From IMG/VR virus record IMGVR_UViG_3300030107_004154, positions 1-60,773 of that record: DNA of 60,773 bases; one strand, 5' to 3'. Shown piece after piece: positions 4,266 through 42,067 of the stretch. The notes beneath the pieces were generated by a model, which had not been told where the DNA came from, did not search any database, and saw only the letters and a list, made by a program, of their open reading frames with translations. Within the stretch, counting starts at the first letter, position 1. Each line of letters begins with the position of its first letter. The DNA comes from a virus (lineage: Duplodnaviria > Caudoviricetes). Made by a program: the position numbers and the translations under genes.

Positions 4266-4615
4266 TAGTCTTTCCTCTGGTCATCCCTATCTGCTTTAGC
4301 TATTTTATTGCTGTCAATCAGCTGGGGCACACCTAAAATAGTTTTAATTAACGTATCCTGTCTAATGATTTCATTATCCAAACTACGTATCCTATCTATT
4401 AATGCTACCAGTATACCATGCTGTGAATCAAGTTTTGTGCCCAGTCTTTCTTCTATCGCACTTATTTGTTGAGCTACTTTGTCATCTACAATATCAAGTT
4501 TAGTCTCCATGCCATCTACAATACGCATAATAAGCTTATAGATAAACCACCCTAAACCTAACGCAGCAGCTATAGGAAACCCAACTTGTTGGATTATAGT
4601 AACGATATCATTCAT
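4265..4615 (-). CDS. Single-TM protein (YvrJ-like N-terminus) with coiled coil
   Basis: IQQVGFPIAAALGLGWFIYKL hydrophobic helix; coupled by TAATG overlaps on both sides. Confidence 0.55.
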   Translation of the reverse strand: MNDIVTIIQQVGFPIAAALGLGWFIYKLIMRIVDGMETKLDIVDDKVAQQISAIEERLGTKLDSQHGILVALIDRIRSLDNEIIRQDTLIKTILGVPQLIDSNKIAKADRDDQRKD

Positions 4616-6208: not shown

Positions 6209-6553
6209 TTATGCATCTGCTTCTGTAGTGCCATATATCTTACAGGTAAGTTGCATATTTAAAGCTGCCCGCATTTCAGCACTATTATCTACTAGGTTTT
6301 TAACCCACCCTTCCATATCAGCAGGAGTAACGTCTCTAAAGCTAGTCCAATTAGCATCTGATTTTGTTGCTAGTCTGTCAGTAGGGCTCCAATAAAAATA
6401 CTCAGTTACAGTAAGCGACTTAGAGTTATCTGCTTGGTCCACCCCTGTTATATTAACTACAACTTCACTAATAACTTGATCTGTATAGTTATTAAAAGGT
6501 GCCCCCTGCATAGAAACAAACTCATAGGTTAAATTAAAAGTATGTACAGCCAT
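6209..6553 (-). CDS. Small tail-fibre-associated protein (hypothetical)
   Basis: Coupled by TAATG to the upstream tail gene; SFRDVTPADMEGWV resembles small phage tail-associated proteins. Confidence 0.5.
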   Translation of the reverse strand: MAVHTFNLTYEFVSMQGAPFNNYTDQVISEVVVNITGVDQADNSKSLTVTEYFYWSPTDRLATKSDANWTSFRDVTPADMEGWVKNLVDNSAEMRAALNMQLTCKIYGTTEADA

Positions 6554-9525
6554 TATGGATCCTCTCCTCCACCTGGAGGTCCGCCTGGTCCTGGAGGTCC
6601 TGGAGGAGCACTTGCGGTTACTACAGTATAGATATCGTTGATTGAGCCTATCTCTAACTTAACGTATTCAGAAGCGCTATACCCAGCATCACTTGTTGTT
6701 CTTACCTGTACCGTGTCACCAGAAGCTACAGTAGCTGTCCCCACATTAGTCCAAGCTCCACTATTAATTTTATATTGAGCATTACCAGAGCTACTAGTCC
6801 CAGTAAAAGTAGCAGTGCCAGAAGTAAAACCAGACCCAGATAAGGTAATAGTATTAGAGGTGTATAGAGTACTAAGGCTTGCTCCAGTTACATCTGTAAA
6901 AGTAAACTGGGCAGGTTCATTAACCCCAAATTTATAAAATCGTGCTTCTACAAATTCAACTTGTCTAGCATCTGGCCCACCATCCCCTTGTCCATACATA
7001 TATAATTTTGCCGTACCACTATGAACATGTCTAAAAGTAACAGGGATATTAGTTGTATCTTGGTTAGAATCTAAACGCCCTTCACTTACCATGCCGGTCA
7101 TCTTGTCTAGTGTTGGGCTAGAATAACTACAGTATTGGGAGTAAGTAGCTGGCATACCCCCTTTAGACGTTATAGTAGAATTGTCTACAATAGGGTTAGT
7201 GTCAGTACCTCCACTAGTTTGCGTAACATCTACAGTAAGAGAGCTATCTGCTACCATAAAATGTATAGTTTTTACATATCCAGGGTAATCCCCACCTGCT
7301 GCTCTTATATAACCAGTGTAAATACCAGCCCCTGTACCTATATCCCCTAAATAAGTGTATCGTCCTGAGTTATTATAAAAGGTCCCTACCGCTGTTCCTG
7401 TTTTCTTAAACCCGGTAGTAGGTAAAATAAGTTGATCTAGTACCGTTAATTTACTTGCCGCTAAAGTATCAATCTTAGCATTTGTAACAGCAGCATCCTC
7501 AATCTTAGCTGTTTCAATAGCCGCATCTGCAATTTGAGCAGTGTCTATCTGAGCAGTACCTATCTTAGCTGTGGTTATTTGGGCATCCCCAATTTTAGCT
7601 GTAGTTATTTGAGCATCACCAATTTTAGCTGTAGTTATGGCAGCATCATTTATTTTAGCTGTTTCTATAGCAGCATCTGCAATTTGAGCAGTGTCAATCG
7701 CAGCGTTTTGAATCATCGCATTATTCATATAAACAACATTACTGCTTACGATAAAAGGTGCAGTACTTGAACTGCTGTCATTCCATATTGCAAACTTATC
7801 TGCTTGAAATTGGACCGCGGATGCCGAACCGCCGTCCGCGTTCGCTTCTAAAACCATACCTGCTACAGAGCCATTAGCCGCTACTTGTAGAACATACGAA
7901 GCTTGAGCATTGCCTTCTGCATCTGCTGTAACCTTAGCTAATTGTGCTATGCCTGCGCTTGTACCTATAAAATTATCCGTTGTTTTTGTATAAGCAGAAT
8001 ATGCAGTTGTACTTGTTGCAGCATCTCCTGGAACCGTTATAGTCAGTTCAGTATCACTAACCCTACTCGCAATTCTAAAGGTTTGATTTAGTCTAGCTGC
8101 AGTTATACCCCCTGTAGCCGAAGCCCCCACTAAAGTTATAAAGGCGCCTGCTGTTACCATACCACTAGTAATACCATGGGCGGCAGTAGCATCCGAGCCG
8201 CTATTTGTTCTTGTTTCTATACCAACTGTATTATTAGAGTTAGTTTTTATACGAACTCCAAATTCATTCCCTACTTTAGCCTGTAGCGCAGTAATACTAG
8301 TAGCATTAGCTCCCGTCTCACTAGCACGTGTACTTGCTTCTGAGGTTACAGCAGCTTGGGTAGTAACATCTCTAACTAGCTCCCATTCCCCTGAAGTAAC
8401 TTGATCTGCCCCAGCTGAAGCTGCCCAATATTGTTTATTAGAATCGTTCGTGTCAAACCACAGATCCCCAGCGTTGTACGAAGTAGGAACACCATCTTGG
8501 GCAAAAATATAAGAACCACCACTTCCAGGGATGCCAGAAGAGGTAGCCAAAACCCACTCCCCTGCAGTTACTTGGTCTGCAGTTGCAGAATGTGCCGTGT
8601 ACATTTTATTACTATCATTTGAATCTATCCAAATATCCCCGACGTTTGTAGCAGTAGGAACAGCATCTTGGACAAAAGTTCTAGTTTTAGTATTAACGGT
8701 CGAAGTTAAAGAAGAAAGGCTAGTCATAGCCTGTGTATCACGAGCCGCTTCCCATCCATTATTGCTTGAGTTTCGTATATAAAGTTGATTGTTATCGTTA
8801 GTGTCATACCACATATCTATTGCTTGTAGTGCGGAACCATCAGCTCTTTGTGTTGGGGCAGCGTCTTGTCTAAATATATTAGTAGAATTAGCAGTTACTA
8901 GACCCGGTACAGTTGTACTAATTAGAGTAGAGTATCCAGGCAGTCCACTTAATTCCTCAGAAAGACTTGTCATCACTGCTCCTACATCAGCAGCAGTAGT
9001 AGCACTTACTCCTTCTGTAGCGTTGTATGGGCCTATTACATTTTCTCTACTTACAAACCTAATCCAATAGTAATATGTCTTGTTATACCCTACCTCATCT
9101 GTATAAACAGAAGAATGAGTAGTAGAGCGTAAAACAGCTCCTCCGATTTGATTTGTTTCGGATCTATATATTTTAGTATAAGCATGGTTAGAATACCCTG
9201 CAGGTGCCCAGTCTAGAATAACTTGGGTAAAAGCCCCCGACGCAGATAAGCTTAGAGGAATAGGGGGGACAGATAAATCTCCGGGTGGGGCCTCATCAGG
9301 TGGGACAAAATCTTTAGGGTTTTGGCCAATTGCCGTTGCCGCTTCTACTTCTTTAGCTAGTCCGCTATCTATTAACTCCCTAAGAGTAATTGCTCTATCT
9401 TTTGGATCCCCTCGACGTCCTAATCTTATTTCTAAAGCTTCAGTTAAAGAGGCTAAGGTACTTCTTAATTCAGGGCTTAAGGAAGAAGGGGGTCTAACAA
9501 TAGAAGGAACTTTAGTCTCGGCCAT
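6553..9525 (-). CDS. Tail fibre / host-specificity protein (DUF1983-like domain, 10-aa beta-helix repeats)
   Basis: [16 protein letters not shown]...FQADKFAI...[15 protein letters not shown]; [10 protein letters not shown] repeats; Fn3-like N-terminal part; three G-D-x-W-x-D-x-N-D modules. Confidence 0.8.
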
Positions 9526-12293: not shown

Positions 12294-12491
12294 CTATGAA
12301 AAGATTCTTTCTACGCCACTAGCTGCAATAATTAGAATATAAAGACCTAAAATATACCTAGTGAACTTAGCGTCCATAGCATCAAATTTAGCGTCTCCTT
12401 TATCTAATCTTTTTTCTATGTTCGCATAGCGGATAGCACATTCTCTTTCATGTGCTGCTATCTTTTCCATAGATTCTTTCGCCGTAGCCAT
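12294..12491 (-). CDS. Small coiled-coil + TM protein (possible holin/lysis accessory)
   Basis: AHERECAIRY motif and C-terminal TM helix, near the endolysin. Confidence 0.55.
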   Translation of the reverse strand: MATAKESMEKIAAHERECAIRYANIEKRLDKGDAKFDAMDAKFTRYILGLYILIIAASGVERIFS

Positions 12492-12505
12492 GCCTAATTA
12501 TAACC

Positions 12506-13222
12506 TTAGTCGAAGGAAACCGTAAAGTTCCCATCTATGAGAGCAGATGGACCTGTTCCACCACTCGCTGAAGACCAACTCCATTGGTATACAAGCCTAC
12601 TATAGTAAAAAGTAGGAAGACCTACATTCCTTGCAAATTTATACCCTACCCCATCGTCTCCGCTCGCAGCGTGTCCTTTAACATAAACATTACTCCAGTC
12701 TGTATCTCCTGTATCACATCCACTCCCTTCAAACGCTATTTTAAAAGTAAAAGTGTCAACTATCCCATCTAGTTGTTGAAAAGTTGCTCCTGAGAGCCAC
12801 TTATTGCTATCAAAATCACTACCATTTGGCTTTGCGTTAGAAGAACTTAGTGCTAAAGCAGAAGTGGTGTATGAGGTATCTCCATCGTCAAGGGATCCAA
12901 TTTGGGTAGTGGTACCATTATTAGTCATCCCTTGCATACCCCCCACTGTACCCCAGCCTTTTATATACACGGTAGTGGTTACCGTCTCTTTAGTGATTTG
13001 TTGTTCAAAGTTGTAAGAAGTATCTCCTCCTGTTACTTCGTAGGAGTTAGCCCAGTCTCTAAAGTGTGAAGTAGCTGTATTACTAGTGCCATGAGTATTT
13101 ACAGTAGTACCATTAGTTCTAGGTCTATAGTCTTGGTAAGTGCTAGCATCCACAGCCCCACTGTTATTCATTACATCACGCATGCCATCCATGCTTAAAT
13201 TTGTCCAAACTAGTTTACTCAT
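12506..13222 (-). CDS. Hypothetical virion protein (T/S/G-rich; possible distal fibre/adhesin)
   Basis: 238-aa ORF; ATGA overlap; beta-rich composition. Confidence 0.5.
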   Translation of the reverse strand: MSKLVWTNLSMDGMRDVMNNSGAVDASTYQDYRPRTNGTTVNTHGTSNTATSHFRDWANSYEVTGGDTSYNFEQQITKETVTTTVYIKGWGTVGGMQGMTNNGTTTQIGSLDDGDTSYTTSALALSSSNAKPNGSDFDSNKWLSGATFQQLDGIVDTFTFKIAFEGSGCDTGDTDWSNVYVKGHAASGDDGVGYKFARNVGLPTFYYSRLVYQWSWSSASGGTGPSALIDGNFTVSFD

Positions 13223-13911
13223 AGAAAATCTACCTCAATTACATCATGAGTAACAGTATACTCATTTATTAATGTGTCTGGTACTTCTTCCCCTCCTGCA
13301 CTGCCATCTTCAGTAGGAACAACAACTCCCCCTGGTGTTCTATATTTATATTCTTTAGTTAGCTCAGAAACTGTATAAGTAGACCAGTCTATAAGTGAAT
13401 TAGGTTGTTGTAAGCCAGCTATTTCAGCACGCTTGAAAGTTGCAGTCATAGGGCCGTCTTTTGCTGTATAACTTTTCTTTTTTATTGCCCCTAGTTCTTT
13501 CCACACTTCAACTCTAGCGTTTTGCCACTCTACGTTAAAAACATACTCTCTACTATTAGAGGTATTAGGCCTAACTAAACTTCTACATTCATTAATAGAC
13601 CTATCAGAATTGTCATAAAAGGACTCTTCTAGGGTTAATAAATAACCATCTTCATAACTAGCAGTAACACAATATCCCTCTTTAAGCCTATAAACAACTG
13701 CATAGTTAAATTGTTTATACCACCAGTTTGCCTTATCTTCATCCGTTGCTGCTTTATAGTCTGCGTCTGAGACTGTACCTTTTGTCCAATAGGCGTATGA
13801 TAAATTACCTCCATCTATATAAGGCTTAGAAGCCATATACATATTAAAGATATCTCCATTATCTAAATGCTCTTTTAGTTCTTCGCTTGTAAGGTTTTTA
13901 GCTGTAAACAT
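13219..13911 (-). CDS. Hypothetical protein
   Basis: 230-aa ORF tightly packed between neighbours. Confidence 0.55.
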   Translation of the reverse strand: MFTAKNLTSEELKEHLDNGDIFNMYMASKPYIDGGNLSYAYWTKGTVSDADYKAATDEDKANWWYKQFNYAVVYRLKEGYCVTASYEDGYLLTLEESFYDNSDRSINECRSLVRPNTSNSREYVFNVEWQNARVEVWKELGAIKKKSYTAKDGPMTATFKRAEIAGLQQPNSLIDWSTYTVSELTKEYKYRTPGGVVVPTEDGSAGGEEVPDTLINEYTVTHDVIEVDFL

Positions 13912-13913
13912 TC

Positions 13914-15746
13914 CTAAATTGTATCATTAGGGAACCTCTGAGACCATATGGTCAAGCTATACTTAGTACCACTTTTTAACTCTAAACATTCATGTGGGTG
14001 GGTTACAGCCCCTGGAAATAACAATAGTTTACCTACAGGGATATCTTTATTACTTAGGTTTTGACGTGGGAAACTTAGTTCTCCCCCCTCATATCCTTCG
14101 TTTAGTTTAACAGACCCTGTGACGTAGGAAGCATCATGATGTAAAGATAACTTAGTCTGTGTTTCAGGTGAATATTTAAGAATAAAAGCATCTCTTAAAC
14201 CATACATTAATAAAGGCTTCCAATGTTTTTCAGCGATTGGGGCAATATATTTTTGCCAGTGAAATTCTAACATTTCCCAAAGTTCTAGTTGTTTTAAACG
14301 TATCTCTTGTGCAGGAAACTTATCATAATCTAAACTTTTCCAATTCCCATTAGCATTGGCCATATTAATAAGGTCTTCACATTGAGAAATAGTCATAAAA
14401 TCTACTAGAAGCATGTCATTCTCGAGGAGTTCATATTCTCCTAGGTTAGCTATAAATAAAGAAGATTGATTTGGATAAAGTTTTTGATACAGGTTTTCAA
14501 AATGTTTTTTAGCCTCAGCCCCACCATTTCCATGGTAGATACAAGGGCAGCAAATACCATTATCTAACTGTCCATTTGTAACTTGTATTCCAGGTTCATG
14601 TGTTTGAAAAATGTAACCCTCAGTATCTAACACAATATCATAAAGGCCTTCAAGATAAGCTTCTTGGTAAAAAAGCTGGTCATCTTCTTGGTCTGTTATA
14701 TTTGAGTGGCTTAATATTTTTTTTAGTTCTCCTACTTCTCCTATAAAAGTTCCAGAATTAAGGTAACGGTAAGGGGTATTAGTTGGAGGGAATTGTTCAG
14801 CTATACTTTCGTCTGGCCAACAAACAGATTCCGCTGAAAACACAACCTTGTGGTTAAACCCTTTATAACGTTCTTTTATAGTATGTAGAGTATCTGCATA
14901 AAACACGTCGTACGCGTCTGTGAAGAGTACAATATCCGTGTCCGGAAGTTCTTCATACTCCATATGGGCCTTTAAGAGGTTTATTTTCATTCCACCCCCA
15001 GGGCCAGTCATATCAGTACCATTCCATTGCACTTTTTCTCCAATGTTTAGGTATTTAATACCTTGGACATGGGCTGAATTTCTTAGCTTGGTAAGTTTAT
15101 TTTCCTCTGTACCTATCGTTATTACATGAACAGTACTCGCCTCTCTTATGTCTGATGGTAAAATATCAACACTAGCTTGATTACAAGCATCCTGTGATAA
15201 AGCAAGAGCATTAAAAGAATGCTTTTGTATCATCTCTGGTAAGTACTCATCTACAGGGATAATACCCGATAGAATATCTGTTTTTAATAACTTCCTAGCT
15301 CCTTTAGGTCGTATTACATAAGCAGTAGTATTGTAGGGATACCAAGGCCTTTCTAGTCTATCGTCTATTCTATTTGTTCTTTCTGGTTCATTTTCATTAC
15401 GTTGTAAGTATAAGAAGTCCCAACTATCTATAACTTTTTCATAATATTCTTCATCCCAAGTTTCATTAATAATTGCGTCATCTTCAAGTACTATAATTGG
15501 TTCATCCAGTTCTACACATTTCTCCCAAGCTTTTCTGTGGGATAAGAAACAGGCTACTTCAGTAGGAAGAATAGGTCTATTAAGAAAAGGATCTACCCAT
15601 CCCTCTCTTGTTGGATACATTGAAAGGTCCTCTAGCTCCCCATCTACGGCTGTTATGAATTCTACAGAAAGGTTGTTATTTTCTATAAAATGGTCCCGTC
15701 TATCTTCCCGTCTTTCTAAATTGATAACAAACTTTTTTAACGCCAT
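13914..15746 (-). CDS. Trifunctional collagen-modifying enzyme: GT25 (COLGALT-like) + PLOD/LH3-type glycosyltransferase + lysyl-hydroxylase-like 2OG-Fe(II) oxygenase
   Basis: GT25: VINLERREDRR, GWVDPFLNRP, CFLSH, LEDDA, GARKLL..PVDEYLP. PLOD-GT: GGGMKI, FTDAYDV, FSAESVCWP, YLNSGTFIG, DDQLFY, HGNG. LH: LSLHHDAS, YEGG, PGAVTHPHE. Confidence 0.88.
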   Translation of the reverse strand: MALKKFVINLERREDRRDHFIENNNLSVEFITAVDGELEDLSMYPTREGWVDPFLNRPILPTEVACFLSHRKAWEKCVELDEPIIVLEDDAIINETWDEEYYEKVIDSWDFLYLQRNENEPERTNRIDDRLERPWYPYNTTAYVIRPKGARKLLKTDILSGIIPVDEYLPEMIQKHSFNALALSQDACNQASVDILPSDIREASTVHVITIGTEENKLTKLRNSAHVQGIKYLNIGEKVQWNGTDMTGPGGGMKINLLKAHMEYEELPDTDIVLFTDAYDVFYADTLHTIKERYKGFNHKVVFSAESVCWPDESIAEQFPPTNTPYRYLNSGTFIGEVGELKKILSHSNITDQEDDQLFYQEAYLEGLYDIVLDTEGYIFQTHEPGIQVTNGQLDNGICCPCIYHGNGGAEAKKHFENLYQKLYPNQSSLFIANLGEYELLENDMLLVDFMTISQCEDLINMANANGNWKSLDYDKFPAQEIRLKQLELWEMLEFHWQKYIAPIAEKHWKPLLMYGLRDAFILKYSPETQTKLSLHHDASYVTGSVKLNEGYEGGELSFPRQNLSNKDIPVGKLLLFPGAVTHPHECLELKSGTKYSLTIWSQRFPNDTI

Positions 15747-16309
15747 TTTGGTCCCTCCACCCAAGATACTAAAGATTTACGAATACCTTTAGTTACAGGT
15801 AAAACCCTATGCCGTATTGGGGAGGGGAAAACTAAAATAGTGCCTTGTTTCTTTAGAAGGTCTTTATCTGGGGCTTCATACTGAGGTTCAAGTTCAAACT
15901 CTCCCCCTTCATATTCTGAAGGATCAGAAAGTTGAATTATTATACTTAGCTTCCTGTCATAACTAGAAGGGTTCCCCCAGAAAGTGTCATGGTGCCAATT
16001 ATAATGTCCTTCTTCTGTACCTTTATATGTAGTAAATTGAATATCCCATACGTTTGTAATATCAAGTCCAAAAGCTGCTCTATTGGCACTAGATATATAA
16101 TCCCAAATTATTTTTTGAATTGTAGGAGAAGAATTTGGAGAGACCCAACGTAGTTCAGATCTACGTACGGTTAAGTCTTCCTTGGATTCCATGTTACTCT
16201 GATGTCCAATCTTTGCTGTGACTGGTTCATAGGTTTCACATTCTTTTACTATTGCTTCAACTGTAGCGCGGTCTAGTTCGCCGGCCCACATTTGCCAAAT
16301 TGCTTTCAT
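15737..16309 (-). CDS. 2OG-Fe(II) oxygenase (prolyl-hydroxylase/PKHD-like)
   Basis: HYNWHHD (HxD), RKLSIIIQL, YEGGEF, FPS..RHRVLPVTKGIRKSLVSW. Confidence 0.9.
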   Translation of the reverse strand: MKAIWQMWAGELDRATVEAIVKECETYEPVTAKIGHQSNMESKEDLTVRRSELRWVSPNSSPTIQKIIWDYISSANRAAFGLDITNVWDIQFTTYKGTEEGHYNWHHDTFWGNPSSYDRKLSIIIQLSDPSEYEGGEFELEPQYEAPDKDLLKKQGTILVFPSPIRHRVLPVTKGIRKSLVSWVEGPKWR

Positions 16310-16324
16310 AACACCTCCTGTGTT

Positions 16325-18934
16325 TTATTTATCTTCTAGTTTTCTTATTCTAGAGTCAAGGTCTTCATACCCTTCTAGATCATATAAATCTTTTGGAGTA
16401 TGCGAATCTATTGCTAGTTCTTTAATTGCTTCAACTAAGAGTGGAATAACTTTTTCGTACCAAATAGTTAAGTAATCCCCATGTATAGGAGCTTCTGTAA
16501 CCACTTCTGGGAGAACTTTTTGTACTTCTTGAGCATTGAGTCCTACTTGACGCTTGTCGTTGTCATATCCTAAGCTACGAGCTAATTCATTCTCTTTAAA
16601 GTAATATCCTGTAAGTTGTAAAACTTTTTCAAGAGCATCTACTATTGGCCCTTCAAATTCTTTTAATCTTTCATCAGAGTAATAAGCAGTAATATTATTA
16701 GTTGCCCTAATTTCACCTGCTGTGCCACTTGCTGCTGTGCCTGCCCCTAAAGAGTTTAATTGAGTATTAGAACTTGTGCTTATCCCTGCCCCTGTCGGTC
16801 CTGTAGGTCCCGTCGGTCCCGTCGGTCCTGTAGGTCCGGTTGGCCCTGTAGGTCCGCCACCCCCTGTTGAACCTGGGGCACCTTTTTGTCCTTTACTTCC
16901 GTCCGAACCATCATCACCACTCGGTCCAGTAGGTCCTGTTCCACCTGTAGGACCAGTTCCACCAGAAGGCCCAGTCGGCCCAGTTGGGCCCGTTCCACCA
17001 GAAGGCCCAGTTGGGCCCGTTCCACCAGTTGAACCAGTAGCTCCTTTTTGTCCTTTTTGTCCTTTAGAACCATCTGATCCATCTGACCCATCGCTTCCGC
17101 CTGGTCCAGTTGGTCCAGTTGGACCTGTTCCACCAGTTGAACCGGTAGCTCCTTTTTGTCCTTTTTGTCCTTTGGCCCCTGCGGAACCATCACTACCATC
17201 GCTACCCGCAGGTCCCGTTGGTCCTGTGCCCCCGGTTGGTCCAGTTCCGCCACTTGGGCCCGTAGACCCAACTTCTCCTTTTTGTCCTTTTGAACCGTCT
17301 GATCCATCTGACCCGTCTGAACCAGCAGGTCCTGTAGAACCTGTAGGTCCACTAGCTCCTACCTCACCTTTTTGTCCTTTAGAACCTGTAGGTCCCGTTG
17401 GGCCTGTTCCTCCAGTAGGTCCTGCTCCTCCTGTAGATCCAACTTCTCCTTTTTGTCCTTTTGAACCGTCTGAACCATCACTACCATCTGAACCAGCGGG
17501 TCCAGTAGGTCCAGTAGGCCCTGTTCCTCCAGTTGATCCAACTTCACCTTTTTGTCCTTTTGAACCGTCTGATCCGTCTGATCCCCCTGGCCCTGTTGGT
17601 CCTGTTGGTCCTGTTGGTCCTGTAGGACCGGTTGGGCCGGTTGGGCCGGCTGGTCCTGTGTCTCCAACATCACCCGTTCTTGCAAAAGTAACTACTACAT
17701 TATTGCCATTGCCAAAGGGGCTTGCTGCCGAACTATCAACATTACTTACTGTTATATCAAAGTATCCACTTGCTTCTGATAAACTTGAAATTGTATAAAG
17801 TAGAAATTTATTAGCATCTGTTTTTAATGAAATTTTTACATGCCCTTTAATAGTAGAAGTTGAATCATCTATTGTTCTTAAGAAAGATTGAATATCACTG
17901 GAACCAGCATCAGCATCATCTATATAGATACCTGTAGCACCATTCTGAGTTGAATTATCTAGTCTAAGGGTTCCCGCTCCAGGGTCCGCATTAGTTGTTG
18001 TAGTGCTGAAAGCATATTCAAAAGATTGTCCACCAAAATTACCTTGTGGTCCGGTAGGACCTGTAGGACCCGTAGGACCTGTACCTCCAGTTGGGCCTGT
18101 ACTACCCCCTGGTCCTGTTGAGCCTACTTCTCCTTTTTGTCCTTTAGACCCGTCTGAACCATCTGAACCATCTGAACCTGCTGAACCGCCAGGACCGGTA
18201 GGACCCGTAGATCCAACTTCTCCTTTTTGACCTTTATCCCCAGCTGAGCCTCCAGGACCTGTAGGGCCTGTGCTTCCTGTTGAGCCTACTTCTCCTTTTT
18301 GGCCTTTAGAGCCATCTGAACCATCTGAACCATCTGAACCTGCTGAACCTGTAGGGCCGGATGGGCCTGTGGGACCCGTGGAGCCAACTTCTCCTTTTTG
18401 GCCTTTCGCCCCGGCTGAACCATCTGAACCATCTGAACCTGTTGGGCCTGTTGGACCTGTACTACCTCCTGGCCCAGTTGGACCTGTTGGACCTGCCCCT
18501 CCAACTTCTCCTTTTTGTCCTTTCTGCCCTTTTATACCACCAGTGGGGCCTTGCCATTCACCTGAGCTATTAATAACCTCAGAGCCACCTATTTTTACAC
18601 CAGTTATGTCAATGACACCTGTTTGAGAGTTTTGGTCTAATTGAGGAAACGTTTCTAAGACTTTAGCTGTTAAACGTAGATCACAAGCATCACCAGCATC
18701 AAAAGAACGTGCTGAAGTTCCGTCTTGTTCACGGACTACTGTGAGCGTATTACCGCTCCTGGCAGTTACTTTAACTACCTCATTGTTTGTCCCGTCATCA
18801 AACGTTACATAAAACGACTGTCCGCTACTTAGTGTAGGAAAGACCGAACCATCTGTAACTCCAATACTGGTAACAGAGGTGTTGATATCTCCTGATAGAG
18901 TCGTAGTCGCATTGTTCTTAAAAACAATTGCCAA
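16325..18934 (-). CDS. Collagen-like tail fibre with C-terminal peptidase-S74 intramolecular chaperone
   Basis: Two long Gly-X-Y tracts ([15 protein letters not shown]) separated by a ~120-aa globular insert; YYSDERLK...[17 protein letters not shown]...LLVEAIKEL. Confidence 0.92.
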
Positions 18935-39856: not shown

Positions 39857-40370
39857 TTTTATCCTCCTTGCTTGGCTCTAAGTAATTTGTCTCAGATCCT
39901 GCTATTTTTAATAATTCAGAATCTGACATACGCTCGAGTCTCTCTAAATTATCTACATTAATATTAACCTGTGTTGCTTGCTCAGGTGCAAATAGACCGT
40001 GAAGCTTGCATAAAGAATCGACGACATTTTTTTCTTCCGTCGCGTTTGCAGATTTTCTATGTGCTTCTAAATACATAGTAGTCGCAGTAGTGCGGTCAAA
40101 TTTTACTTCTTCACGCATCTCGGACCGTAGATAATCAACCGCCTTTACAATGGCAGGTCTTTTAAAAACCTCGTACACGGAATCCTGGTTACGGTACCCC
40201 GCTGCACGGCCCGCGGCCGCTTTACTCATTCCTTTTAGATAAAATAAAATTAACCTTTCTTCTTGGACCGAAAGCTCGGATAAACGAACCCCCGCGTAAG
40301 GAAAATGGGATTGCAACTCTGTTCTATCTTCATCAGTTACTTCAACTGCTTCGTTTTCTAACAGGCTCAT
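39846..40370 (-). CDS. terS: Terminase small subunit
   Basis: HTH-like GMSKAAAGRAAGY, LCKLHGLF; first gene of the late block, upstream of terL. Confidence 0.75.
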   Translation of the reverse strand: MSLLENEAVEVTDEDRTELQSHFPYAGVRLSELSVQEERLILFYLKGMSKAAAGRAAGYRNQDSVYEVFKRPAIVKAVDYLRSEMREEVKFDRTTATTMYLEAHRKSANATEEKNVVDSLCKLHGLFAPEQATQVNINVDNLERLERMSDSELLKIAGSETNYLEPSKEDKSVN

Positions 40371-40376
40371 GTGCTA

Positions 40377-40406
40377 AATATAACTTATTAAAGTGTTATT
40401 TGTAAA
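40377..40406 (-). promoter_or_regulatory. Sigma70-like promoter for the late/terS unit (leaderless geometry)
   Basis: TTTACA-N18-TATATT, 6 nt before the ATG; no SD. Confidence 0.4.
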
Positions 40407-40554
40407 TTTTTTGTGGAAAATTTTTTTTGAAAAAATATAGTAGAAATCGCTCACGCATGGGATTCTACTATCACTACAGAAGCACTCCCCTCCCGAATCG
40501 GATCGGGGATAAGGAAATCCAAATCAAAGATTTGGAACCTTGTATTGAAAAAAC

Positions 40555-40580
40555 CGCTCTGGCGCACGCGCCTACGAGCG
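40555..40580 (+). promoter_or_regulatory. Conserved bulged hairpin element, copy 1
   Basis: CGCTC-T-GGCGC-AC-GCGCC-TAC-GAGCG; covaries with copies 2 and 3. Confidence 0.7.
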
Positions 40581-40657
40581 CTTACATATCTCTATGTAGT
40601 TAGTAAAGAGGAGCTAGCTACTATCATCATTAACCATCCTCACTTAAGGAGTCCATC

Positions 40658-41020
40658 ATGGATATCATTAAATTATTAGGTAACGGCGTCGGTAACATAC
40701 TCAAAGCAGGGTATACAATCGGCAAGGGTACCGCTAACTCATTCACCGAAGGTGTAAAAGAATCTTTCAAAGATCCAGCTGATAACATAGTTGGCAACAT
40801 GGAAGAAGATACATCTCTTGGTTATAAATCTGTCCAAGAAGAAGTCATGGAGGGAGCAAGAGATAACCCTCTAGACTATGAAGACGGAGAGTTAGATAAA
40901 CCAATCGCTGAAAAATATCGTGAGCTTAAAAAAGCTAAAGCTGAATCTGAAGCTGAATTTAAAGCTCAACATCAGACAGTTCAAACTGAGTTTGATTTCG
41001 AACCAGGAGGACAGAGATGA
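40658..41020 (+). CDS. Early hypothetical protein (acidic)
   Basis: SD TAAGGAG; 120 aa. Confidence 0.65.
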   Translation: MDIIKLLGNGVGNILKAGYTIGKGTANSFTEGVKESFKDPADNIVGNMEEDTSLGYKSVQEEVMEGARDNPLDYEDGELDKPIAEKYRELKKAKAESEAEFKAQHQTVQTEFDFEPGGQR

Positions 41021-41202
41021 ACGGTAACATCAGACGTCTAGCATGTGGGGTAGCCTTAGCTACCTCACTCCTATTAGCAATAGAATTAATACTATCATCA
41101 GGTATGGTATCTTACATTGGTGGTGTCTACGCATTCACCTTTGGAGTGGTATTCGCTAGTTCAATAGCTTATTTCATTCATTTATCTAAAGAGGTATCAT
41201 GA
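41017..41202 (+). CDS. Small 2-TM membrane protein
   Basis: ATGA overlap; two hydrophobic helices. Confidence 0.6.
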   Translation: MNGNIRRLACGVALATSLLLAIELILSSGMVSYIGGVYAFTFGVVFASSIAYFIHLSKEVS

Positions 41203-41315
41203 ACAAGTTAAAGTATTTAATTCTCATTCCTCTCTATCCACTATTCCTAGTTGGATTAACATTTTCTTTCTTTGTCCATCAAGTCAGAAGACAGGCTTGG
41301 CTTAATAAATCTTAA
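41199..41315 (+). CDS. 38-aa membrane peptide (not in ORF track)
   Basis: GAGG SD, ATGA overlap; MNKLKYLILIPLYPLFLVGLTFSFFVHQVRRQAWLNKS. Confidence 0.55.
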   Translation: MNKLKYLILIPLYPLFLVGLTFSFFVHQVRRQAWLNKS

Positions 41316-41320
41316 CTAAC

Positions 41321-41346
41321 GGGGGTGTCCAGCCCCCTTCTTTTTT
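41321..41346 (+). terminator. Rho-independent terminator
   Basis: GGGGG-TGTCCAG-CCCCC followed by TTCTTTTTT. Confidence 0.7.
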
Positions 41347-41406
41347 ATTTAACTACTATCATCAGTGCCGAAGTGCTTCTGCATCTTCGTGCACTGCCTG
41401 CATTTA

Positions 41407-41692
41407 TGGTTCCGTCTGTTCCACAGACATGTGCCGATGTGGAACCACATCGTGGAACCAATATTAAATGCATGGGAATGCGGTTTTGCGACTGCAAAGT
41501 TGCATTCTGGTTCCGCGGTTCCGCGTATTTCAGAACTATGTACTGAAATGAACCGTGGATCGTGGTTCTTGGTTTTAGGTTTAGAAGACCTAAAACTAGT
41601 GGAACCAGTGGAACCAAACCTTACAACCCTGACTGTTGTTGGGCTAATCGTGTTCCATTACTCGTGGAACCAAGTGGAACCATGTGGAACCA
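41407..41692. repeat. Iteron-like GTGGAACCA array (candidate replication origin or packaging site)
   Basis: Exact GTGGAACCA at 41439, 41452, 41599, 41608, 41664, 41674, 41684; inverted/variant copies at 41407, 41417, 41508, 41516, 41651. Confidence 0.75.
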
Positions 41693-41728
41693 AATTTTCG
41701 TCGCTCGCGCCTCTCGGCGCTCGCTCAC

Positions 41729-41754
41729 CGCCCTTTCGCAAGCGAATACGGGCG
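41729..41754 (+). promoter_or_regulatory. Conserved bulged hairpin element, copy 2
   Basis: CGCCC-T-TTCGC-AA-GCGAA-TAC-GGGCG. Confidence 0.7.
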
Positions 41755-41818
41755 TTTCTATTGTTATATGATCTTGGTACGGGTGTATCGAGACTTAACC
41801 TTAACTTAAGGAGATATT

Positions 41819-42067
41819 ATGAATCAATTATATTCATTATACATATTAAAATCTGGCGCTGATGGTAAAAACAGAAAGCGTGAGGTTGGCATAGCTACTA
41901 CTAATAAAGATGGTAGCTTAACATTACACTTTGACGTTGCTGTTCCGCTAACTGCGGACAATGAGCAAGCTAAAGTGTTCATGAGGGTTATTGAGCCAAG
42001 AGCTCAGGCCCAGGCAAATGGGCAGTCAACTGAGAATGTTGAACCAGCTCAAGCTGTAGCAAGTTAA
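41819..42067 (+). CDS. Small early protein, possibly ssDNA-binding
   Basis: SD TAAGGAG; REVGIATTNKDGSLTLHFD beta-hairpin pattern. Confidence 0.55.
   Translation: MNQLYSLYILKSGADGKNRKREVGIATTNKDGSLTLHFDVAVPLTADNEQAKVFMRVIEPRAQAQANGQSTENVEPAQAVAS

Follow-up and report, generated by a model that had tools for sequence, protein, structure and literature searches.

A bacteriophage protein joining two collagen-type glycosyltransferase domains to a lysyl hydroxylase domain, encoded beside a collagen-like tail fibre

The stretch of DNA considered here, referred to below as the window, is the IMG/VR virus record IMGVR_UViG_3300030107_004154 at its full length of 60,773 bp, which is a complete viral record (CheckV 100%). 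On its minus strand, at positions 13914..15746 (stop codon included), lies a gene for a protein of 610 amino acids (aa) in which three domains follow one another on a single chain: a glycosyltransferase (GT) of the GT25 family, a PLOD-type glycosyltransferase and a lysyl hydroxylase (LH). The gene is part of the tail module and is found two genes downstream of the gene for a collagen-like tail fibre. This single-chain enzyme probably modifies that fibre, by hydroxylation of its lysines followed by O-glycosylation in two steps. The window encodes a terminase, a portal protein, a major head protein, a DNA polymerase, a primase and a helicase, together with a lysozyme and tail-fibre genes, and by this gene content it is the genome of a tailed bacteriophage; the phage is a marine one.

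In the window, the fibre (869 aa), a 2-oxoglutarate (2OG) oxygenase of 190 aa, the enzyme and two proteins of 230 and 238 aa are encoded in this order as a tight run on the same strand, in which the genes abut or overlap. Promoter- or terminator-like sites showed no excess that would split the run, so it may be read as an operon, and the abutting genes count in favour of the fibre as the target of the enzyme. Related loci were collected from viral sequences. A scan of viral contigs with the single protein gave only two loci, and an alignment-based scan of IMG/VR gave 377 stretches with a relative of the enzyme, of which 80 loci were kept for counting linkage; an open reading frame (ORF) was taken as collagen-like when it had at least 12 G-X-Y triplets. 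A collagen-like ORF is found upstream of the enzyme and on the same strand at 61 of the 80 loci, at 46 of the 49 that have at least 3 kb of upstream sequence, and at all 38 that have at least 4 kb (34 distinct fibres). Apart from three loci that are taken up below, those without such an ORF have too little upstream sequence. Downstream, 54 loci have at least 4 kb of sequence, and none of them has a collagen-like ORF on that side. The order of fibre and then enzyme is common to phages of unrelated types: the T4-like cyanophages S-CAM9 and S-PRM1 of Synechococcus (fibre, small protein, two 2OG oxygenases, enzyme), the 45-kb roseophage CRP-6 with a roseobacter host (collagen-like fibre gp60, gp59, enzyme gp58) and the 61-kb phage of the window. 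The enzymes of these three cultured phages are annotated as ‘hypothetical protein’.

Each of the three domains is closest to collagen-modifying enzymes, well ahead of generic GT25 enzymes of lipopolysaccharide (LPS) synthesis or generic oxygenases, both in searches with the separate domains and in structural comparison. In Pfam, the protein matches Glyco_transf_25 (PF01755; residues 4-167, 6e-25) and GT_PLOD (residues 204-408, 1.6e-51), and its match to 2OG-FeII_Oxy_3 (residues 524-602, 1.2e-5) is just under the cut-off. A sequence search of the PDB matched human LH3 (3e-37) in two stretches, one in the GT domain (query 207-384) and one in the LH domain (query 473-598), as well as R699 (6e-28), COLGALT1 (1e-20), the LH domain of L230 (2e-8) and a bacterial GT25 protein (3e-4). 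When used alone, the GT25 domain (aa 1-200; 15147..15746, minus strand), which resembles the catalytic GT2/GalT-C domain of COLGALT1, matches COLGALT1 at 1.2e-21 (80 bits), against 2.7e-5 (27 bits) for bacterial GT25. The LH domain, of the double-stranded beta-helix (DSBH) type (aa 431-610; 13917..14456, minus strand), matches LH3 at 9.6e-10 and L230 at 4.7e-9. Between them, the PLOD-type glycosyltransferase domain (aa 201-430; 14457..15146, minus strand) is defined by the GT_PLOD match and by its structural likeness to the GT domain of LH3. NCBIfam gave no match for the fusion protein, nor any bacterial family. The start codon is an ATG at 15746, 6 nt after the Shine-Dalgarno sequence GGAGGG; an alternative TTG start 18 nt upstream of it would give a protein of 616 aa.

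AlphaFold, given 32 homologues, yielded a model with a mean predicted local distance difference test score (pLDDT) of 85.7 and a predicted template modelling score (pTM) of 0.52, a value that leaves the geometry between the domains undefined. A Foldseek search with this model returned LH3 (5e-29; for the isolated GT domain of LH3, 6wfv, template modelling (TM) score 0.82 and root-mean-square deviation (rmsd) 2.5), R699 (8e-19), COLGALT1 (4.8e-15; rmsd 2.3-3.2 over 217-232 columns) and the LH domain of L230 (TM score 0.75, rmsd 1.8-2.2), and below these four ranked bacterial GT25 (1.8e-9) and, at about 1e-6, prolyl hydroxylases. The enzyme is more compact than its animal counterparts. Between its two matched stretches LH3 has about 380 residues, for which the window enzyme has about 89, and the accessory (AC) domain of LH3 is missing; the matches of the central and C-terminal domains are only about 1 aa apart. 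The non-catalytic N-terminal GT1/GalT-N domain, by which COLGALT1/2 dimerise and bind LH3, is also lacking, and GT25 starts directly at residue 4. The original prediction, which was made from the letters and their translation, had described this gene as a fusion of COLGALT-like, LH3-GT-like and lysyl hydroxylase domains in 610 aa, apparently lacking the central accessory domain, and the ORF, Pfam, PDB and Foldseek results confirm this description. The segments that it singled out in the GT25 part (GWVDPFLNRP and AYVIRPKGARKLL...IPVDEYLPEM), the LH3-GT motifs of the middle part (GGGMK, DAYD, FSAESVCWP, LNSGTFIG, DDQLFY and HGNG) and the C-terminal HHD...H are all present in the translation.

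The roles of individual residues were taken from PMC6082870 (Scietti 2018), PMC12987934 (Sun 2026), PMC11897130 (the cryo-EM study of KOGG) and PMC12003778 (De Marco 2025), and were mapped onto the enzyme through HMMER alignments, with the numbering offsets checked on W145, D190/D191 and D522. In the GT25 domain, E88-D89-D90 corresponds to the EDD Mn site of COLGALT1, R16 to the diphosphate-binding R354, D166 to the catalytic base D522 and E167 to E523. In the central GT domain, W241 and Y279 correspond to W75 and Y114 of LH3 (the stack on uridine diphosphate, UDP), D277/D280 to D112/D115 (the DxxD Mn site), W310 to the gating W145 and D355/D356 to D190/D191, while H405 (of HGNG) was assigned to LH3 H253 by motif only. 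In the LH domain, H536/D538/H585 (HxD...H) are equivalent to the Fe(II) triad H667/D669/H719 of LH3, and Y525 corresponds to Y656. Across 32 aligned homologues (identity 53-70%), E88, D89, D90, R16, D166, D277, D280 and W241 are invariant, and so are D355, D356, H405, H536, H585, Y525 and K595; D538 is conserved in at least 90%, and Y279 (Y or F), E167 and W310 vary. In a wider alignment of 101 rows including the query, the H and D of the triad are present in 100 of the 101 rows and the distal H in 99.

The probable substrate is the collagen-like tail fibre of 869 aa (16325..18934, minus strand), which in Pfam matches Collagen (6.5e-49) and Peptidase_S74 (3e-11), an intramolecular chaperone domain, and which also matches tail-fibre families of PHROGs. 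The start codon of the fibre gene is a TTG, 6 nt after AGGAGGAGG. Two segments of the fibre are unbroken runs of G-X-Y, namely aa 133-303 (18026..18538, minus strand) and aa 421-717 (16784..17674, minus strand), the latter with nine copies of GQKGEV and eight of GSKGQK. Together they hold 156 G-X-Y triplets and 27 lysines, all of which are at Y and most of which are in GQKGEV and GSKGQK. X-Lys-Gly is the context in which lysyl hydroxylases act, and hydroxylysine (Hyl) followed by Gly is required by COLGALT1, as stated in PMC12987934 and PMC9546862; the lysines of the window fibre (27 G-X-K-G sites) have this same context. Several long open frames that lie over the fibre gene (16776-17798 on the plus strand and others within 16780-18626; 340, 190, 118 and 108 aa) were rejected as genes and are by-products of the G-X-Y composition.

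The position of the lysines was compared between fibres linked to the enzyme and a control sample of viral collagen-like stretches obtained by a GG-N7 pattern search, which comprised 77 ORFs and 4112 triplets once two loci that matched the query proteins and one that had no long ORF were removed. The linked fibres (57 distinct ones, with 10,034 triplets) have Lys 2493 times in Y and never in X, and Arg is absent, whereas the control ORFs have 191 Lys in Y, 70 in X and 162 Arg. Y-position Lys is thus about five-fold commoner in the linked fibres than in the controls, and X-position Lys does not occur in them (Fisher's exact p = 2e-76, for triplets that are neither independent nor phylogenetically corrected). 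The lysine pattern is compatible with modification by the enzyme without being proof of it, and the gene order is the stronger evidence.

As for the reaction itself, the modification would take place in the cytoplasm of the infected cell, before the fibre trimerises. The C-terminal Fe(II)/2-oxoglutarate domain would turn the Y-position Lys of G-X-K-G into hydroxylysine, to which the N-terminal GT25 domain, as an inverting GT-A enzyme that has Asp as its base and EDD as its Mn site, would add the first hexose from a UDP-sugar (galactose (Gal) in animals, glucose (Glc) in the case of mimivirus L230). A further hexose would then be attached by the central PLOD-type domain, in the manner of LH3 and R699. 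With up to 27 sites per chain in the window fibre, the likely benefit would be a fibre that is stabler, hydrated and protease-resistant, or one with an altered recognition surface. The domains, the conserved catalytic residues and the linkage of the genes are observed directly; what we infer from them is which activities the enzyme has, which sugars it takes as donors and what its substrate is.

A number of observations weigh against this interpretation. The donor sugars and the linkage cannot be read from a sequence, and the domains of the model have no defined placement relative to each other. At three loci (L063, L064 and L066), the sequence upstream, about 3 kb long, contains no collagen-like ORF. 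In the controls, too, Y is the preferred position of Lys (191 versus 70), which appears to be a general habit of collagen-like sequences, and Lys in Y could serve ion pairs of the K-G-E/D kind instead of modification. It had been predicted that viral collagen-like ORFs rich in Y-position Lys would have the enzyme elsewhere on their record, and this was not borne out: it was found in none of the four full records of Y-Lys-rich control ORFs that were searched, these records being 18-85% complete. Y-Lys richness is therefore not treated as diagnostic. Three control records low in Lys were searched as well, and one of them gave a weak GT25-like match (E 1.7e-5, residues 50-171). In mimivirus particles, according to PMC9614988, hydroxylysine was seen and glucosylation was not confirmed.

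Several binding residues also differ from those of the human enzymes. In the acceptor cleft of the GT25 domain, the W495 of the COLGALT1 YW motif (Y494, W495) is replaced by an invariant N139, with Y138 kept, and K470 is replaced by N117; in human COLGALT1, W495A abolishes activity and K470A cuts it markedly, as reported in PMC12987934. In the LH domain, L557 takes the place of LH3 C691. As the original prediction had suggested from the motif, the 2OG-binding Arg (R729 of LH3) has become Lys in the alignment (K595, invariant in the phage clade), so that the motif reads GTKY in the enzyme, GTRY in LH3 and GKRY in L230. Among 100 relatives and the query this position is Lys in 51, Arg in 47 and a gap in 3, with Arg in most of the long giant-virus forms and also in some proteins of 620-641 aa. 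Collagen prolyl 4-hydroxylases (P4H) use Lys for 2OG. A P4H-like identity of the LH domain on account of K595 was considered and rejected, given that its matches at 1e-9 are to LH3 and L230, and that no P4H was returned at E<=1.

The acceptor cleft also bears on the alternative that only part of this chemistry is carried out on the fibre, for example hydroxylation and the addition of a single sugar, with one of the glycosyltransferase domains being structural or acting elsewhere, such as on Thr in Y. Thr is found at 4393 of the 10,034 Y positions of the linked fibres, the GT25 cleft is unlike that of COLGALT1 (YN for YW and N for K470), L230 is reported to give only the monosaccharide Glc-Hyl (PMC9614988), and non-catalytic GT-like domains are normal in this group of enzymes, as the AC domain of LH3 and the GT1 domain of COLGALT1 are described (PMC12003778, PMC6082870). 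Both glycosyltransferase domains nevertheless keep metal-binding and catalytic residues that are invariant in the 32 homologues, and degenerate domains usually lose them; we regard partial chemistry as unlikely, though the least unlikely of the alternatives.

An enzyme that acts on something other than the fibre would be less probable still. The region of tail-fibre genes is a hot spot for accessory genes according to PMC7029224, so that adjacency could merely result from the position of the gene within a variable tail module, and the target could be a small molecule or some other protein of the phage or the host; the conserved 230-aa and 238-aa proteins that travel with the cassette, and the Y-Lys-rich collagen-like ORFs on records without a detectable enzyme, would fit such a case. 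Adjacency is however kept across very different phage genomes and on the upstream side only, and the specificity of the homologous enzymes (X-Lys-Gly, and then Hyl) fits the sites in the fibre, which makes a different target improbable. Least probable is an auxiliary or host-takeover function in which the LPS or another surface glycan or protein of the host is remodelled. It is the usual reading of glycosyltransferases encoded close to phage tail fibres and of GT25 proteins labelled ‘LPS biosynthesis’. Existing labels lean in this direction, as the family is filed in PHROGs as phrog_61, ‘2OG-Fe(II) oxygenase’, in the class ‘moron, auxiliary metabolic gene and host takeover’, its JGI homologues carry the name ‘GR25 family glycosyltransferase involved in LPS biosynthesis’, and a study of pelagimyophages (PMC7029224) interprets glycosyltransferases in tail-fibre regions as modifiers of the LPS O-chain. 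Yet the GT25 domain is far closer to COLGALT1 than to bacterial GT25 (1e-21 versus 3e-5) and falls in no bacterial family of NCBIfam, the fused lysyl hydroxylase domain has no role in LPS synthesis, and a collagen-like fibre precedes the enzyme at every locus with at least 4 kb upstream. Moreover, among 185,579 prokaryote species, with one genome each, only 6 loci were found, all of them in metagenome-assembled genomes (MAGs) or a single amplified genome (SAG), and the family is therefore essentially viral.

Modification of the tail fibre by the three-domain enzyme, the reading preferred here, has its nearest precedent in mimivirus. L230 is a protein of 895 aa with an N-terminal glycosyltransferase 27.7% identical to GLT25D1 and a C-terminal LH; it hydroxylates and glucosylates viral collagen-like proteins by adding Glc to Hyl, which gives a monosaccharide (PMC9614988; further facts on L230 were drawn from PMC9546862 and PMC4691112). 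Like the window enzyme, it thus has a GLT25D1-like GT25 at the N-terminus and a PLOD-type LH at the C-terminus of one chain, the virus to which it belongs has genes for collagen-like structural proteins too, and its first annotation, as these sources indicate, was mistakenly that of an enzyme of LPS biosynthesis, a label that homologues of the window enzyme also carry. The differences are equally clear. The window enzyme has 610 aa and neither AC domain nor spacer, whereas L230 has an architecture of roughly 900 aa with an R699-like GT and AC in the middle, and the gap between GT and LH is about 1-12 aa in the phage form and 200-540 aa in long forms. GT_PLOD is strongly conserved in the window enzyme (1.6e-51, against 1.9e-6 in an L230 orthologue), the 2OG-binding residue is Lys instead of Arg, the virus has a bacterial host, and the protein paired with the enzyme is a tail fibre carrying an S74 chaperone domain.

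In animals, the activities are divided between LH3 (PLOD3) and COLGALT1 (GLT25D1), as the original prediction had stated; in the KOGG complex the two are described as associating non-covalently through the GT1 domain and N-loop of COLGALT1 and the GT and AC domains of LH3 (PMC11897130). By sequence, the three chemistries, the catalytic residues and the target (Lys in Y before Gly) would be alike in the phage enzyme and the human pair, but the phage enzyme has neither GT1 nor AC, would work in the cytoplasm without the context of an endoplasmic reticulum, and differs at the four sites given above (YW to YN, K470 to N, R729 to K and C691 to L). R699, the collagen galactosylhydroxylysyl glucosyltransferase of mimivirus, has a catalytic domain homologous to the central domain of the window enzyme and shares with it the DxxD motif, the gating Trp and the poly-Asp residues; it is a dimeric, stand-alone GT with AC, whereas the GT of the window enzyme sits between GT25 and LH and has no AC. 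The bacterial GT25 beta-1,4-galactosyltransferases of LPS and lipooligosaccharide (LOS) synthesis (e.g. PDB 8xlz) share the Pfam family and the GT-A fold, but they are single-domain enzymes that act on glycolipids, and their similarity is much weaker.

The fusion to which the original prediction gave the term Rosetta stone is therefore real, but it is not new, as L230 (described in PMC9614988) already joins a GLT25D1-like glycosyltransferase to LH, and giant-virus proteins of roughly 830-1540 aa join GT25, GT_PLOD, a spacer and LH. Taken as a whole, that interpretation is partly supported, and the more informative part, which it missed, is that a phage gene of this kind stands beside its probable substrate. 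What is new is that the form is compact, lacking AC but having three conserved catalytic centres, that bacteriophages have it, and that it is partnered with tail fibres. Literature searches, mostly of non-subscription papers, found no description of a phage lysyl hydroxylase/glycosyltransferase that serves collagen-like tail fibres. Closest to it are the study of pelagimyophages cited above and Iyer et al. 2010 (PMC2938197), who predicted that bacterial dioxygenases of the beta-hydroxylase type modify co-encoded collagen-like or tail-collar proteins, and read arrays of dioxygenases in cyanophages as secondary-metabolite genes.

Relatives of the enzyme are numerous. A word-indexed search gave 1119 proteins at E<=1e-5, the best 120 of which are all 543-635 aa long, with an identical set of Pfam domains and the JGI name cited above as their sole functional name. 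An exhaustive search of representatives at 50% identity gave 4884 proteins at E<=1e-3, 1375 at E<=1e-10 and 227 at E<=1e-30. Of the 150 best representatives, the compact three-domain type of the window enzyme accounts for 43, and long forms of 829-1541 aa, with the same three domains and a spacer of more than 150 aa, account for 38; a further 34 have the two GT domains only, 11 have GT_PLOD and LH, and 4 are PLOD-like. Some of the short forms may be fragments. The long forms (L209-L245; P0166-P0199) consist of GT25, a strongly conserved GT_PLOD, an accessory-like spacer and LH, and would in effect be a full PLOD with a COLGALT-type GT25 attached; their YSYW, RKK and GTRYILV residues resemble those of animals. 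They are mostly found on marine giant-virus contigs (22 of 37 loci with GVMAG names), an origin that rests on these contig names and on the L230 orthologue. The latter (L223) is an ORF of 889 aa on a contig of 1.02 Mb, which matches PDB 6ax6 at 3e-75 and has GT25, an R699-like middle region and LH, with the weak GT_PLOD signal already mentioned. One of the prokaryotic loci (L085; PBPT01000002.1, 60,834 bp) is close to the window in length, was binned in a MAG of Candidatus Neomarinimicrobiota (Marinimicrobia) and encodes an enzyme with 69% identity; it is probably a related phage genome, and at best a weak hint at the host.

The gene between fibre and enzyme (15737..16309, minus strand) overlaps the enzyme start by 10 nt and encodes the small 2OG-Fe(II) oxygenase of 190 aa, of the P4H/PKHD type (PF13640, 2.5e-17), with further matches to PKHD-type hydroxylases (3e-6) and to a viral collagen prolyl hydroxylase (5c5t, 0.0027). 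At 45 of the 80 loci there is a homologue between fibre and enzyme. All 37 of the distinct fibres with this neighbour have at least 20% Pro at X, and none of the 14 Pro-free fibres has it, with 6 Pro-rich fibres also lacking it (Fisher p = 5e-9, not phylogenetically corrected). From this co-occurrence, the oxygenase is probably the prolyl hydroxylase of the fibre, acting on G-P-T, that is, on Pro at X and not, as in animals, at Y. A recent duplication of the LH domain was rejected as its source, the two being 34% identical over only 53 residues (E 5e-5). In one control (L161), Pro is mainly in Y (50 of 296 triplets, with 1 in X) and Lys is absent; a homologue of the small oxygenase is nearby (E 2.9e-28), and the three-domain enzyme was not found in the stretch examined.

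[quoted passage not shown] Homologues were found at 53 and 20 of the 80 loci, respectively (for the latter at a phmmer E<=1e-3), and in other phages they lie between fibre and enzyme instead of after the enzyme; they could be fibre-associated proteins or further modification factors. At the S-PRM1 locus (L003), an annotated nucleotide-sugar epimerase gene (12434-13225) lies about 3.6 kb downstream of the enzyme and could be a source of the UDP-sugar donor. In the rest of the window, the sign of the GC skew changes and the orientation of the genes flips at about 40000-42000, from where transcription diverges: the structural module (1-40 kb) runs along the minus strand, and the plus strand carries the replication module (41-60 kb). 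A second, non-collagenous tail fibre of 990 aa (6553-9525, minus strand) has a Phage_Tail_Tip domain, a run of near-identical 10-residue repeats and a short tail of 14 residues at its end. No tRNA genes were found in the window, and positions 20000-44000 gave no megablast match among GenBank phages, which means no close sequenced relative in that collection.

Joining of GT25 and LH is already known in giant viruses, and the phage form would stand as a third architecture, beside the split enzymes of animals and the long fusions of giant viruses, and in it the 2OG-binding Arg is replaced by a Lys specific to the clade. The family is widespread and mis-annotated, as its database labels are only ‘hypothetical’, ‘2OG-Fe(II) oxygenase’ and ‘LPS biosynthesis GT25’. 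A 2022 review (PMC8968730) describes prokaryotic collagen-like proteins as mostly neither hydroxylated nor glycosylated, and sets phage collagens aside as stretches of about 18 residues in capsid proteins; more than 1000 phage proteins would now point to the full hydroxylation and glycosylation of lysines in long collagenous tail fibres. The wider proposal, which we advance tentatively and at slightly less than even chances, is that many marine phages (cyanophages, roseophages and uncultured ones) build fibres of modified collagen, with Hyl-linked disaccharides and mostly also hydroxyproline from the neighbouring oxygenase, the former installed by a ‘one-chain KOGG’. The cultured carriers S-CAM9, S-PRM1 and CRP-6 make this claim directly testable. 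Glycosylated collagen cannot yet be produced in bacteria, in part since active human collagen glycosyltransferases are hard to express, as explained in PMC9546862. If the proposal holds, the phage enzyme would be a tool for glycosylated recombinant collagen that is competent in the bacterial cytoplasm, and the metazoan-type pathway of collagen lysine modification would extend into the world of bacterial viruses.

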